Positions 2,165 through 11,543 of a stretch of 64,000 bases of DNA are shown here, one piece after another. The notes under the pieces are model-generated. The model was not told the DNA's origin, searched no databases, and saw nothing but the letters and a program-made list of their open reading frames with translations. The stretch comes from Escherichia phage vB_Eco_F26, in sequence record OP870145.1. The stretch is one strand, 5' to 3'. The number at the start of each line of letters is the position of its first letter. The stretch's first letter is position 1. A program made the translations under genes and the position numbers.

Positions 2165-2245
2165 TTAGTTTCTCTTTTAGGTTGGGCCATTCCTTGGCGC
2201 ATGAATTGTCCATTTCTGTATTTACCCCTCCAAGTAATTATGAAT

Positions 2246-2275
2246 ATACTATCACAATTCTAGGAGAAAGTAAAC
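2246..2275 (-). promoter_or_regulatory. T4 early-type promoter (minus strand GTTTAC -35, 18-nt spacer, TAGTAT -10)
   Basis: Motif read on minus strand upstream of the P-loop operon; near-identical copy at 2635..2664. Confidence 0.45.
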
Positions 2276-2277
2276 TG

Positions 2278-2580
2278 TTATTTACCTTTAATTACTTTAG
2301 CTGCTTCGATAGCCGCTTGCTGAAGGTCATCCATAGACATACCGAATTTAGAAGCAAAGTTATCAATTTTCTTTTCGACAGCATTCAAAGGCTTGGCCTG
2401 TTTACCTTCATTAGCGCCAGGAAGAGCGAGAATACGCTCTTTGTCAATATAAAGGCTTACAAGTTTCTTACGGTCTTTATCGGACAAATCATGAAATGAA
2501 TGGGCCTTTTTATTTATAGCGGCTTCTAATTTACCTGCACTCACTCGCGCTTCAGTAATAAATTCTTGATATGTTTTCAT
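2278..2580 (-). CDS. internal protein (IP) family, 100 aa, with capsid-targeting sequence
   Basis: N-terminus MKTYQEFITEA is the T-even IP capsid-targeting sequence ending in an I-x-E prohead-protease site; size and position next to e resemble T4 ipII. Confidence 0.75.
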   Translation of the reverse strand: MKTYQEFITEARVSAGKLEAAINKKAHSFHDLSDKDRKKLVSLYIDKERILALPGANEGKQAKPLNAVEKKIDNFASKFGMSMDDLQQAAIEAAKVIKGK

Positions 2581-2634
2581 ATGTTTCCTTTAAATATTTT
2601 AATTAATAATTTATCTATTCAAGTAACTGTGAAT

Positions 2635-2664
2635 ATACTATCACAATTCTAGGAGAAAGTAAAC
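2635..2664 (-). promoter_or_regulatory. T4 early-type promoter for IP gene (GTTTAC -35 / TAGTAT -10)
   Basis: Minus-strand motif about 55 nt upstream of ATG 2580. Confidence 0.45.
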
Positions 2665-2668
2665 AACT

Positions 2669-3163
2669 TTATAGATTTTTATACGCGTCCCAAGTGCCAG
2701 TTCTAAACGTGGCAATGACTCGTTTTGCGCGATTAGGTGTTTGATTATACCATTTACTTTTAGCTAAGTTAACTGCTGCTTCATCCCAGCGTTTTTGTTG
2801 GAGCATACGTAAAGAGTTAGTAAATCCTGCTACGCCAGTTTCTCCCATTTGGAAGACCATATTAATCAATGCACAACGACGAACCGCATCAAGAGAATCA
2901 TAAACCGGTTTTAATTTAGCATTTCTCAAAATTCCACGAACAGCAGCATCAACATCCTGATTAAAGAGTTTTTCAGCCTCATCTTTTGTAATTACACCAT
3001 TGCAATTACGCCCAATAGCTTTATCTAATTCAGATTTAGCAACGCTTAGTGATGGACTTTTTGTAAGCAAATGACCGATGCCAATAGTGTAATAGCCTTC
3101 TGTGTCTTTATAGATTTTAAGTCTAATACCTTCATCTATACGTAACATTTCAAATATATTCAT
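2669..3163 (-). CDS. e: lysozyme (endolysin), T4 e
   Basis: 164 aa, matches T4 lysozyme from recall with a few substitutions ([12 protein letters not shown]...[10 protein letters not shown]). Confidence 0.97.
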
Positions 3164-3167
3164 AATA

Positions 3168-3189
3168 CCTCCTAAGTATTTATAGAAGG
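3168..3189 (-). promoter_or_regulatory. late promoter TATAAATA overlapping an SD-sequestering hairpin upstream of e
   Basis: Minus strand CCTTCTATAAATACTTAGGAGG: TATAAATA 13 nt before ATG; CCTTCTA can pair with TAGGAGG, as in the known T4 e early-transcript hairpin. Confidence 0.55.
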
Positions 3190-3199
3190 TATTTATAAA

Positions 3200-3655
3200 T
3201 TAAAAGAGGCTGTTCATTATTCGGTAAAGTGAAGGACCCATCACGTATTGCCACTGAGTACGAGGAATAAGAGCAAAAGCGTCCATCTCTGGAATCATAA
3301 CACCATCTTTATTTTCAAAATAAGACTCACAATAGCAATTTCTGAACATCTCATGCTCTACTGGAATCGTATAATAAAATAACTGTAAGTCTTTATTACT
3401 AGAATATTTAAATACACCTAGGTCTTCTAGAAGGTCTGGATTATAATTGCTAAAACCGGTCTCTTCTAAACATTCTCTTCGTGCTGCATCTAGTGCACTT
3501 AAATCAGAATTTTCTACACGGCCCTTTGGAATATCCCAGCGATGTGCCATCATTCCAGGCTTACGAGAACCAGTAACCCGACCCATAAATAAATCTTTAT
3601 CTTCTGTCATGAAGATAATACCAGCTGATAATGTTTTCATTTTAATTTCCTGCAA
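3200..3655 (-). CDS. nudE: Nudix hydrolase NudE (e.1)
   Basis: 151 aa; Nudix box-like GRVENSDLSALDAARRECLEETGF; position next to e as in T4. Confidence 0.85.
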   Translation of the reverse strand: MQEIKMKTLSAGIIFMTEDKDLFMGRVTGSRKPGMMAHRWDIPKGRVENSDLSALDAARRECLEETGFSNYNPDLLEDLGVFKYSSNKDLQLFYYTIPVEHEMFRNCYCESYFENKDGVMIPEMDAFALIPRTQWQYVMGPSLYRIMNSLF

Positions 3656-3999
3656 TCACTCACAAACTCTTTCATTGATTCATTTTCAATATAAGACATG
3701 TAGCTATTATATTCTTTTAATTGTATTTTGTAATCCTTTTTTCTTTGCCAATTTATTTTAAAATTATCATAATGAAAATATAGCATGGTACCAAAGAATG
3801 AAAATAATGAAATAATTTTAGTATAGCGAAGTTCACTCCAAACTTCTATTATATTTACTGTGCCGTCGATGTTTAAAATAAGACAGTCAATTAATAATCC
3901 AAAAAGACTACCCGCAAGAGCTGCAGCCAACGCCACAGCAAAAATTAAAAATGACTCAGGAAGCGAATATTTGACTTTATTTAGTTTTGGCTTTTGCAT
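3637..3999 (-). CDS. small membrane protein (120 aa)
   Basis: ORF with hydrophobic segment LIFAVALAAALAGSLFGLLIDCLIL. Confidence 0.55.
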   Translation of the reverse strand: MQKPKLNKVKYSLPESFLIFAVALAAALAGSLFGLLIDCLILNIDGTVNIIEVWSELRYTKIISLFSFFGTMLYFHYDNFKINWQRKKDYKIQLKEYNSYMSYIENESMKEFVSDCRKLK

Positions 4000-10043: not shown

Positions 10044-10044
10044 G

Positions 10045-10117
10045 CTGGGAATAAAGGACTCGAACCTTTGCATCTAGCAGTCAAAGTGCTATGCCTTACC
10101 AACTTGGCTAATTCCCA
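10045..10117 (-). tRNA. tRNA-Gln (anticodon TTG), CCA not encoded
   Basis: Acceptor TGGGAAT/ATTCCCA, anticodon stem TAGCA/TGCTA with loop CTTTGAC, T-loop TTCGAGT; abuts tRNA-Leu as in the T4 Gln-Leu dimer. Confidence 0.7.
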
Positions 10118-10214
10118 ATTATTAACAAAGGCTCTCAAACAAGAACCCTTGATGATAGAGGGTATTAATCAGTGCGGTATGAGTTAATAATAACAAATAA
10201 TTCTTAAAGCATAT

Positions 10215-10508
10215 TTACCATTTATGATGATACATACTTACGATGCATTCAAGACCTAAAGGATTCTTGAAAATATCATATTCAAGAGGACCTTTTTCTG
10301 TTTCAATAAAGAAATCAAAATTTACTGTATTAAATTTACGGTCTTCCTTTACTAATTTAACTTGAGAAGATGAACGGTCAATGTAAACCTTTTCAACTTC
10401 AAAACACGTTAAAATGCCATAATCATCAATCAAGGCTTTAGCTGCTTCTTGATCATATTTATATCCATTTTCAATGGATGATACTTTAGCATAAAGAATC
10501 ATTATCAA
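10215..10508 (-). CDS. hypothetical protein (97 aa)
   Basis: ORF. Confidence 0.5.
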   Translation of the reverse strand: MIMILYAKVSSIENGYKYDQEAAKALIDDYGILTCFEVEKVYIDRSSSQVKLVKEDRKFNTVNFDFFIETEKGPLEYDIFKNPLGLECIVSMYHHKW

Positions 10509-10687
10509 CCTTTAGAAATTTTATCCATAACGATAGCAATTAAACCAATTAAAAATGCTACTACAAGTGAAAACACATTTTCTGCTGTAGTTAATAATCC
10601 ACATATAAATCCAACAAACATTGAAAAGCTAAATGCAGAAGCAGAAATTGCAATAGCAACATTTCGAATTAATTCACAACGTTTCAT
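10505..10687 (-). CDS. small membrane protein (60 aa)
   Basis: ORF with two hydrophobic stretches; early promoter upstream. Confidence 0.45.
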   Translation of the reverse strand: MKRCELIRNVAIAISASAFSFSMFVGFICGLLTTAENVFSLVVAFLIGLIAIVMDKISKG

Positions 10688-10715
10688 TTTATTCTCCTCG
10701 GTAGTTGATAGGGTA

Positions 10716-10745
10716 ATAGTATCACAACTAAAACCCTATGTAAAC
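10716..10745 (-). promoter_or_regulatory. T4 early-type promoter (GTTTAC -35, 18-nt spacer, TACTAT -10)
   Basis: Minus strand GATTTAAAATAATTTCACAAAGTTGTTTACAT...TACTAT; the 32-nt upstream block is identical to that at 11046..11100. Confidence 0.5.
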
Positions 10746-10757
10746 AACTTTGTGAAA

Positions 10758-11015
10758 TTATTTTAAATCTTCTAATCGTTTCTTCATCTTAGAACCATTT
10801 TTAGCGATTTCGCCTGCATCAGAGCATAATGCTAAAAGCGCTTTAACTTTAGTTTGGTCTCCTTTAAAAGATGAAGGATCGACTGCAGCAGCAAGTTCTT
10901 TAATACGAGAGAAAAGACGCTCAGCTTCAGCTAAAGCCATTCCAAGCTTTACTTCCATACCGTGTGAAGATTCAGTGATAGTAGTTTTTGTAGCAAACTC
11001 TTTGAAAGTTTTCAT
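10758..11015 (-). CDS. internal protein (IP) family, 85 aa, at the ipI position next to 57B
   Basis: N-terminus MKTFKEFATKTTITE (CTS-like, I-T-E protease site); early promoter upstream. Confidence 0.7.
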   Translation of the reverse strand: MKTFKEFATKTTITESSHGMEVKLGMALAEAERLFSRIKELAAAVDPSSFKGDQTKVKALLALCSDAGEIAKNGSKMKKRLEDLK

Positions 11016-11045
11016 TTTATTTTCCTAATTAATTTTGATGAGATA

Positions 11046-11075
11046 ATAGTATCACTACCTCATCAGCATGTAAAC
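11046..11075 (-). promoter_or_regulatory. T4 early-type promoter for the ipI-position gene
   Basis: Same architecture and identical upstream block as 10716..10745. Confidence 0.5.
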
Positions 11076-11087
11076 AACTTTGTGAAA

Positions 11088-11543
11088 TTATTTTAAATCA
11101 TCTGCCCAATCGAGTTTAAGAGGCTCTTTGTATTCACGATCTAATACGACCGGAATTTGTACATCACCGCTAAATGATAAGGGTCCAACATTATAAGACA
11201 ATGTTATATGCGGTGTGTAATCATCAAAATCATGTGTAGCACCTAGTGCCCGCGCATACATGTGTCGACAACGCAGATATTCAGAATCTAGCACAAGTAC
11301 AAGAGTCGATCCATCTTGTGTTTTCCATACTTCTAAATGCCCAGAAGAAGCTACTTCAAAACTTCCGCTTGATGGAACATACGGAACATTTACTCTTGAA
11401 TAACATATGGTCGAATGAATTTTTTCTCTAGGAACTGGATTAGGAACACGTAAAGAGCGCTGGAGTTCTTCCAGCGCATCAAGTGTTAATTCTGAAAACT
11501 TAGCTGCTACATAAAGACCCGTTGAAAAGTCTTTAAATTCCAT
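11088..11543 (-). CDS. 57B: gene 57B protein
   Basis: 151 aa ORF immediately downstream of 57A; synteny with T4. Confidence 0.75.

Follow-up and report, generated by a model that had tools for sequence, protein, structure and literature searches.

Repeated Regulatory Blocks at the Borders of Small Accessory Genes in Escherichia Phage vB_Eco_F26

Why do identical regulatory blocks recur beside small genes that are otherwise unrelated? The question is raised by Escherichia phage vB_Eco_F26 (sequence record OP870145.1), of which a stretch of 64,000 nucleotides, here called the window, was analysed. The blocks lie in its first 1–12.6 kb, the early minus-strand region that runs from regB through the vs genes, ipII, e and the tRNA genes to 57B. 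The answer proposed here, with a probability of roughly 0.8, is that they are T4-type regulatory punctuation, and that they would mark the borders at which small accessory genes are swapped, lost and gained.

More than 1,200 phage records match positions 1–12,000 of the window. The best are Tequatroviruses, at 95–98% identity, and none is identical. By its sequence the region is that of a Tequatrovirus (T4-like) phage, about 95% identical to known phages. The minus-strand gene order is that of T4: regB, vs.3–vs.8, the denV/internal protein (IP) genes, e, nudE, e.3–e.8, small RNAs, tRNAs, trna.x, a further IP gene, 57B, 57A and gene 1. The rest of the window holds late structural genes, and every one that was compared with T4 is intact.

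Repeated Promoters and Terminators

The 32-nt block ATGTAAACAACTTTGTGAAATTATTTTAAATC has copies at 10738–10769 and 11068–11099, with exact identity over 32 nt. The block ATATACTATCACAATTCTAGGAGAAAGTAAAC has copies at 2244–2275 and 2633–2664; here exact identity reaches 35 nt (2241–2275 and 2630–2664), within wider blocks at 2220–2275 and 2609–2664 that are 89% identical. The terminator block CCCCAACCTTTCGGTCGGGGCTAAG occurs at 7386–7410 and 7944–7968, with 25 nt exact and 29/30 identical over 7381–7410 and 7939–7968. These repeats, together with a 350-bp tandem duplication (6114–6463 and 6464–6813, 100% identical over 350 nt), had been pointed out in an earlier note on this DNA, and all are present in the sequence. 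Most of its coordinates are correct, but two were off by one (10737–10768 for 10738–10769, and 7945–7969 for 7944–7968). Fifty first-order Markov simulations of the 12.6 kb gave longest exact direct repeats of 13.7 nt on average and 17 nt at most; the exact repeats of 35, 32 and 25 nt exceed chance. The flagged blocks are the top repeat families of the entire 64 kb.

The earlier note had taken the blocks for early promoters and terminators, and both motif enrichment and folding bear this out. The pattern GTTTAC-N18-TAnnnT has 9 matches in the 64 kb where 0.86 are expected. All are on the minus strand, which also carries the other promoter motifs, the terminators, the IP and IP-like genes and the chimeric reading frame described below, and 8 fall within 1–11.1 kb. 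The matches are co-oriented with the early genes and stand 22–60 nt upstream of minus-strand open reading frame (ORF) starts; a variant with GTGTAC, at 5842–5871, comes in addition to the nine. The layout is that of T4 early promoters, with a -35 element GTTTAC, a spacer of about 17 nt and an extended -10 element (gtgg or gtga before TAnnAT). An A/T-rich upstream (UP-like) region, judged by eye and not by a statistical score, is seen in the listed promoters, for instance GATTTAAAATAATTTCACAAAGTT and AAAACTTTTTAAAAAATTTTTCACAAAACT.

The motif corresponds to the T4 early-promoter consensus of Miller et al. (2003), GTTTAC-N14-gtggTAttaT, in the form in which the depositors of a relative (OL960580) give it in their annotation. 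Sequence, spacing, strand and position before early genes are the same, and there is no substantive difference, save that two pairs in the window are more alike than the consensus demands. A generic sigma-70 scan was uninformative (45 matches against 46.7 expected), and the T4-specific pattern was needed. By that pattern the promoter-type blocks are two pairs of predicted T4-type early promoters.

Among nine aligned early promoters, in-register exact runs reach 35 and 32 nt in the two flagged pairs and 4–12 nt in all others. The likeness within each pair goes beyond the promoter consensus, and the two pairs differ from each other. In the pair that encloses ipII (2275 and 2664), the common part is the promoter core, from -35 to about +8. 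Its first copy, 2220–2275, is the orthologue of the denV promoter of phage VIPECOOM01; because denV is missing here, it stands directly before vs.8 (fold z -3.9). The second copy, 2609–2664, is the promoter that follows gene e (the post-e promoter; fold z -0.7, no significant stem-loop). In the pair that encloses an ip5-like gene (10745 and 11075), the common part is instead the upstream element and the -35 element, and identity continues into coding sequence, where 57B and the ip5-like gene, though unrelated, end in the same codons and stop (GATTTAAAATAA, D L K stop). One cassette of this pair, 10705–10773, belongs to trna.4 and holds 10738–10769; it has a stem-loop around its -10 box (fold z -4.2), and breakpoints against relatives fall at 10704–10728 and 10763. 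The other, 11035–11103, follows 57B, holds 11068–11099 with the end of that gene, and likewise has a stem-loop around -10 (fold z -3.5).

The terminator copies flank one of two adjoining IP-like genes of the family phrog_2280, here called gene A (6727–7290) and gene B (7412–7887). The first copy, at 7381–7410 after gene B, has a stem of 10 bp (7407–7384) and a T-run, with a folding energy (dG) of -19.5 kcal/mol (z -4.7). The second, at 7939–7968 after an rnaC-like RNA, again has a 10-bp stem (7965–7942) and a T-run (dG -24.9 kcal/mol, z -4.5). With a GC-rich stem, a GAAA loop and a T-run, at a z of about -4.6, both are predicted to be strong intrinsic terminators. A weaker, terminator-like hairpin (CCCTATCTAAATGATAGGG followed by a T-run; dG -10.5 kcal/mol, z -1.9) lies after gene A at 6345–6374, with a second copy at 6695–6724. 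Its stems span 6368–6350 and 6718–6700, and breakpoints of relatives fall nearby, at 6352, 6368 and 6393. A T4 late-promoter motif, TATAAATA, is found at 7928–7935, just downstream of the second strong terminator and upstream of gene B.

Many of the early promoters also fold. A significant stem-loop embraces the -10 box in 5 of the 8 distinct early promoters of the window (fold z -3.5 to -4.4). The window and nine relatives together have 54 unique early promoters, and z is below -2 in 33 of them; among 150 random control segments the count is 14 (Mann-Whitney p = 5e-11). Two of the five stem-loops in the window, those of the regB promoter and the former denV promoter (120–168 and 2215–2285), include the Shine-Dalgarno (SD) sequence, as do the denV-type promoters of relatives. 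Here the hairpin has its 5' arm in the interval from -35 to -10 and the SD within its 3' arm, so that only read-through transcripts could fold it and occlude the SD. This arrangement suggests that hairpins of this kind serve as a translational insulation device of each cassette, not for termination.

Hairpins that sequester the ribosome-binding site, with internal promoters, are reportedly found in T4 at gene e, soc and I-TevI. The layout of the arms in the regB and former denV promoters is the same; in those T4 genes the promoters are late, whereas here they are early. An Rfam search of the region returned tRNAs only.

The Same Cassettes before Different Genes

Nine relatives were compared: T4, VIPECOOM01, G50, ECO78, ime09, ESh26, 215Ecol030PP, Lutter and SA21RB. 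A near-identical post-e promoter precedes ipII in the window, ipIII in T4, VIPECOOM01 and SA21RB, and a 105-aa IP gene in G50; in ESh26 and 215Ecol030PP the gene behind it is denV. Behind the 57B promoter stands either ipI (95 aa) or the ip5-like gene (85 aa). The promoter at the end of e.8 precedes one of four alternative genes, of 58, 111, 132 and 176 aa, and in Lutter two of these stand in tandem, each with its own promoter.

T4 has one terminator between rnaC and the region upstream of e.8, whereas the window has two, flanking gene B. Lutter and 215Ecol030PP also carry an IP-like gene between two terminator copies, to which the window adds a further IP-like gene past the second copy. At this hinge the alignments overlap by 30–51 nt. 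Elsewhere, relatives carry an extra IP gene whose junction is an overlap of 24 nt within the core of a promoter.

Some of the promoters are themselves chimeric. In its upstream half, which takes in the end of the ip5-like coding sequence with the stop, the trna.4 promoter is identical to the 57B-type cassette, and in its core it is identical to the T4 trna.4 promoter; the join sits in 21 nt (ATTTCACAAAGTTGTTTACAT) common to all versions. In ESh26 a promoter hairpin has its two arms from different promoter types, as expected, to judge from its sequence, from a crossover in the loop.

The ipII gene (2278–2580, 100 aa, an internal virion protein; phrog_7857, E = 4.5e-55) lies between the two copies of its promoter pair. 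Upstream it has the sequence that in T4 leads from e to ipIII, and ipII itself begins inside a 47-nt patch, 2549–2595, made up of the SD, the start and the capsid-targeting leader (MKTYQEFI..), over which the two homology segments overlap. By these alignments, the patch is the crossover zone at which ipII would have been joined to the post-e, ipIII-type promoter, with loss of ipIII. Positions 2221–2595 are 99.5% identical to positions 3236–3610 of VIPECOOM01, and the vs.8–ipII–e arrangement is also found in phages Manna and JEP6. The ip5-like gene (10758–11015, 85 aa, an internal head protein; phrog_3499, E = 1.2e-49) occupies the slot of ipI in T4 and is flanked by the 32-nt direct repeat. 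Against T4, G50, ECO78 and SA21RB its replacement borders fall at 10763/10764 and 10980/10981.

Both proteins combine a family match with a capsid-targeting leader ending in (L/I)-x-E (MKTYQEFITE in ipII, MKTFKEFATK..TE in the ip5-like protein). The phrog_2280 pair has leader-like N-termini, in a family without assigned function: MKTYAEFLTE|A in gene A, which encodes 187 aa and is absent from T4, 215Ecol030PP and Lutter, and MKSYAQFLNE|A in gene B. Gene B has a run of six A residues (about 7607–7612) where three relatives have seven, and the resulting -1 frameshift shortens the ORF from 157 to 111 aa, through either true loss of function as a pseudogene or a lone homopolymer error. The two genes lie between e.8 and the rnaC-like RNA, at a site where T4 has neither, and may form a third IP locus, bounded by terminators, where the literature speaks of two. 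A Pfam search on the small ORFs gave nothing above threshold.

As the earlier note had held, the IP gene content thus differs from that of T4: ipIII and ipI are absent, an ip5-like gene fills the ipI slot, and two IP-like phrog_2280 genes are added. IP proteins are injected anti-restriction factors under diversifying selection, and the GmrSD enzyme that is blocked differs between Ip1, Ip2 and Ip3 (PMC12373910). For that reason the set of IP cassettes bears on host range, and their borders show how the repertoire can change. The analysis also corrects the annotation of the region, which lacks denV, ipIII, e.2 and trna.3 and has a frameshift in one IP-like gene.

By our own tally of alignment gaps, about 11 of the 18 breakpoint zones lie in promoter, terminator or leader cassettes; other events use microhomology at ribosome-binding sites. 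With cassettes estimated to cover about 9% of the sequence, the binomial probability is 5e-8, or 2e-4 if an intergenic fraction of 20% is assumed. The homology of the cassettes sits where gene content differs between relatives. Repeats confined to vB_Eco_F26 and flanking the same genes in every relative would have spoken against modular shuffling; in the nine-relative comparison the cassettes are not confined to this phage and flank different genes, and the reading proposed by the earlier note therefore stands. A scan of IMG/VR for the exact 30-nt promoter core found one contig only and was of no use for context statistics.

Mechanism, Precedents and Competing Explanations

The process would start from the regulatory sequences themselves. 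Early promoters are taken to be recognised by host sigma-70 RNA polymerase through an A/T-rich upstream element, the -35 element GTTTAC and an extended -10 element (..GTGATACTAT). The strict sequence needs of promoters and terminators, together with the ribosome site and capsid-targeting leader that IP genes have in common, would produce patches of near-identity, 20–50 nt long, beside otherwise unrelated small genes. The very active homologous recombination of the phage could use these patches, either between neighbouring cassettes or between co-infecting relatives. Whole promoter–gene(–terminator) modules would then be deleted, inserted or replaced with expression kept. In vB_Eco_F26 plausible products are the fusion of ipII to the post-e promoter with ipIII lost, the ip5-like gene in the ipI slot between 32-nt direct repeats, and the IP-like gene between two terminator copies.

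Several observations weigh against this picture or narrow it. The association of cassettes with breakpoints is partly a survivorship effect, as breakpoints that spare genes must be intergenic, and the direction of each gain or loss is inferred from the sequences. Three losses used no promoter or terminator repeat: that of denV lies in a 7-nt microhomology (GGTAAA) at a ribosome site, that of e.2 has its junction (3637–3666) in a ribosome-site repeat of about 20 nt (TGCAGGAAATTAAAATGA), and that of trna.3 has its junction (10498–10515) in a microhomology of 6–7 nt (AGGT). Both e.2 and trna.3 are present in 9/9 relatives. With the e.2 and trna.3 junctions in ribosome-site microhomology, the neighbouring genes remain translationally coupled. 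Further differences from relatives are insertions of ORFs among the RNA and tRNA genes. At 3 of the 8 distinct early promoters no significant stem-loop was found by fold z, and the stem-loops embedded in promoters have no U-tracts and are thus no classical terminators. Nor can the claim of the earlier note be upheld that the same units, promoter plus stem-loop, enclose every early gene of the minus strand. The two promoter pairs differ from each other, and only about 8 of the 26 minus-strand protein genes in 1–12.6 kb (counted from the ORF list) have an early promoter of their own, and most stand in promoter-less arrays.

Could functional constraint alone explain the repeats? The blocks would then be alike because the consensus is long, would take no part in recombination, and the differences in gene content would arise elsewhere. 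T4-type promoters do have GTTTAC, the spacing and the extended -10 element in common, and orthologous promoters such as that of regB are nearly invariant across the ten genomes. Promoters outside the two pairs, however, agree in register over 4–12 nt, not 32–35. The identity that enters the coding 3' ends of unrelated genes, the chimera of two promoter types before trna.4, and the switch of homology from one relative to another exactly inside the patches also speak against constraint alone, which is very improbable. The tally of breakpoint zones already indicates, besides, that they favour the shared patches over other intergenic DNA.

Paralogy deserves somewhat more credit, although it too is unlikely. 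The repeats would be relics of old local tandem gene duplications, with flanks kept by function and protein bodies diverged under the selection of an arms race. The two phrog_2280 genes are indeed adjacent paralogues, the leader MK(T/S)(Y/F)..EF is common to all IP genes, and diversifying selection on anti-restriction factors (PMC12373910) fits such a history. Identity does not, however, decay gradually: at the edges of the patches it breaks off at once, from about 100% to sequence that can no longer be aligned. Close relatives with flanks 95–99% identical differ in the gene behind one and the same promoter, which may even be a gene outside the IP group (denV, for example), and this requires recent exchange. 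The two accounts are not exclusive: duplication makes repeats, and recombination then uses them.

Modular shuffling at IP loci is already known (Repoila et al. 1994; PMC2839356; PMC4122927), and the present case is a rediscovery at the original locus. Promoter early stem-loop (PeSL) elements were defined in phages RB49 and phi1, where formation of mini-circles was shown (Arbiol et al. 2010, PMC2839356). According to the same paper, the PeSL-like elements that Repoila et al. (1994, EMBO J 13:4181) described at two T-even IP loci are T4 early promoters with weak, AT-rich stem-loops, analogues and not homologues of the RB49 PeSLs. The concept was later extended to PST/T4, with the consensus TTTACW-N17-TAYWAT (Comeau et al. 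2014, PMC4122927), which fits the promoters of the window.

The window resembles these T-even loci in phage group, in the loci concerned (denV–ipII–ipIII–e and tRNA–ipI–57B) and in the swapping of leader-bearing IP genes. It differs in having ipII only at the first locus, an ip5-like gene at the second, and two phrog_2280 genes at a third site (e.8–rnaC) bounded by terminators rather than promoters. With the PeSL cassettes of RB49/phi1, PST/T4 and nt-1/KVP40 it has in common the composite of A/T-rich region, -35 and -10 elements, SD and ATG, joined by a stem-loop at 5 of the 8 distinct promoters. The SD and start codon of a small accessory ORF stand at the 3' end of the cassette, in a hyperplastic region, and the borders of many indels and replacements lie in or beside cassettes. 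Direct repeats flank single ORFs at a spacing of 330–560 nt, as substrates for mini-circles do, and the circles predicted here would measure 330, 389 and 558 bp. Homology to the RB49/phi1 PeSLs, with their near-perfect TTGACA/TATAAT and polyG-loop-polyC, is not seen: the -35 element is GTTTAC, the stems are AT-rich and variable, and some promoters have no stem-loop. Terminators and SD/leader patches, moreover, serve as hinges as often as the promoter core.

With its chimeric promoters, a crossover in a leader and a terminator that serves as hinge, the window is a clean illustration of what is already known and opens no new question. Mildly new are the terminator-bounded phrog_2280 pair at a third site, the frequent hinges at ribosome sites and leaders and, if real, a promoter–ORF–terminator unit made by duplication.

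The Tandem Duplication and Neighbouring Features

The earlier note had supposed that the cassettes also explain the 350-bp tandem duplication (2 x 350 bp, 6114–6813). Its structure contradicts this. Each unit comprises 24 nt from the start of e.8 and 87 nt from the end of gene A, together with the e.8 promoter, a spacer of 130 nt and the weaker terminator. The endpoints lie inside two genes, in e.8 after codon 8 and in gene A 87 nt before its stop, and in-register microhomology is 0 nt at 6113/6114, 6463/6464 and 6813/6814. Neither the promoter nor the terminator stands at an end of the repeated unit; both are enclosed by it. Unequal crossing-over mediated by promoters is therefore rejected as its cause, and the duplication is a separate event or an artefact that merely contains cassette units.

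All relatives have a single copy, including one that is 99.2% identical over 3637–6463. A 50-nt probe that seeds only across the junction found no match in 50,697 phage records. A longer junction query of 120 nt was discarded, as every match proved to be two halves 350 bp apart that had been joined, and gave no discrimination. Exact-protein look-up of the 187-aa product of gene A returned two contigs only, both single-copy. The duplication creates a chimeric ORF of 36 aa (6377–6487), in which codons 1–8 of e.8 are in frame with the last 28 codons of gene A; looked up as an exact protein of 36 and of 40 aa, it was not on record in the protein collection.

Tandem duplications arise readily in T4, where selected amplifications have junctions with 2–10 bp of microhomology (Srikant, Guegler and Laub 2022, PMC9391042). 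Compared with such amplifications (PMC9391042; Wu et al. 1991), the present duplication is likewise a head-to-tail repeat of a short early segment with a promoter, in a genome that has also lost denV, ipIII, e.2 and trna.3. It differs in its 0-bp junction, its two copies only and the lack of an obvious selected gene, and may be an artefact.

In that case a circularly permuted genome would have been assembled as a circle with the overlap of its ends left untrimmed, and rotation to T4 coordinates would then have set the two identical contig ends side by side. This account has a slightly better than even chance of being right. It would explain copies that are 100% identical, blunt endpoints inside two coding sequences unlike those known from T4, and a junction seen in no other phage record; a perfect 350-bp repeat should, besides, be unstable under very active phage recombination. 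On the other hand, 350 bp is no typical assembler k-mer overlap, and there is no sign of poor assembly elsewhere in the window, where the 50-odd T4 genes compared are all full length and without frameshifts. The ease with which tandem duplications arise in T4 also speaks for a real event, as does the in-frame fusion, though this would occur by chance in one case of three. Sequence alone cannot decide between the two, an untrimmed overlap being no less probable than a true duplication, and the repeat needs confirmation before this genome serves in comparisons.

If the duplication is real, it could represent the blunt, homology-independent birth of a new cassette, consisting of an early promoter, an SD, the 36-codon chimeric ORF and a terminator, with the phrog_2280 pair as a third IP locus. 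This combination is put forward tentatively, and we consider it rather doubtful. The new unit has 263 nt of identical terminator–spacer–promoter sequence on both sides. It would thus have the architecture of an ORFan between promoters, which could excise as a circle of 350 bp and be carried into other cassettes, and would show the origin of shuffle-ready ORFans in the hyperplastic regions of T4-like phages.

The spacer in the duplicated unit (6211–6344, copy 6561–6694, about 130 nt between the terminator and the e.8 promoter) is conserved, pyrimidine-rich on the minus strand and unannotated in T4 too. Its fold z is about 0 on both strands, and it has no Rfam match. The e.8 promoter itself (6181–6210, with an identical second copy at 6531–6560) is a pattern match without significant stem-loop (z +0.7).

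The remaining predicted early promoters stand singly. That of regB (139–168, GTTTAC-N18-TATAAT) is identical in 9/9 relatives and has a stem-loop around -10 whose 3' arm holds the SD (fold z -4.2 and -5.3 in two runs). The e.6 promoter (5623–5652) overlaps the 3' end of a 58-aa ORF in the breakpoint zone of a replacement in the e.7 slot, with breakpoints of relatives at 5601, 5633, 5645 and 5657. At the right border of the same replacement (breakpoint 5871/5872) stands the variant GTGTAC promoter of the 58-aa ORF (5842–5871), with a stem-loop in its spacer (fold z -4.4).

Two of the ORF insertions lie among the RNA and tRNA genes. A 116-aa ORF of the family phrog_3355 (8277–8627), between an rnaD-like RNA and tRNA-Arg, has precise presence/absence borders, which hold no repeat of the promoter or terminator kind; T4, 215Ecol030PP and SA21RB lack the ORF. 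The place of tRNA-Thr in other Tequatroviruses, between tRNA-Met and tRNA-Ser, is taken here by a 161-aa ORF of phrog_16521 (9172–9657) with a NUMOD-like motif (GRKHSAQSLEKIS); T4 has segB nearby. The 161-aa ORF is possibly an insertion of the homing-endonuclease type.

Similar insertions occur elsewhere in the window. Genes 13 and 14 are separated by 2 nt in T4; in the window a 270-aa ORF with an HNH-like N-terminus (32371–33183) has been inserted there, and it is probably a free-standing homing endonuclease. A 230-aa HNH-like ORF (51782–52474; ..TETHHIIPRCMGG.., with NUMOD-like repeats) lies between a 503-aa uvsW ORF and an 80-aa ORF, which together correspond to the 587-aa uvsW annotation of T4. 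Finally, hoc (48121–49533, about 52% identity) and alt (61491–63934, about 70%) are far more divergent from T4 than the surrounding structural genes (95–100%).

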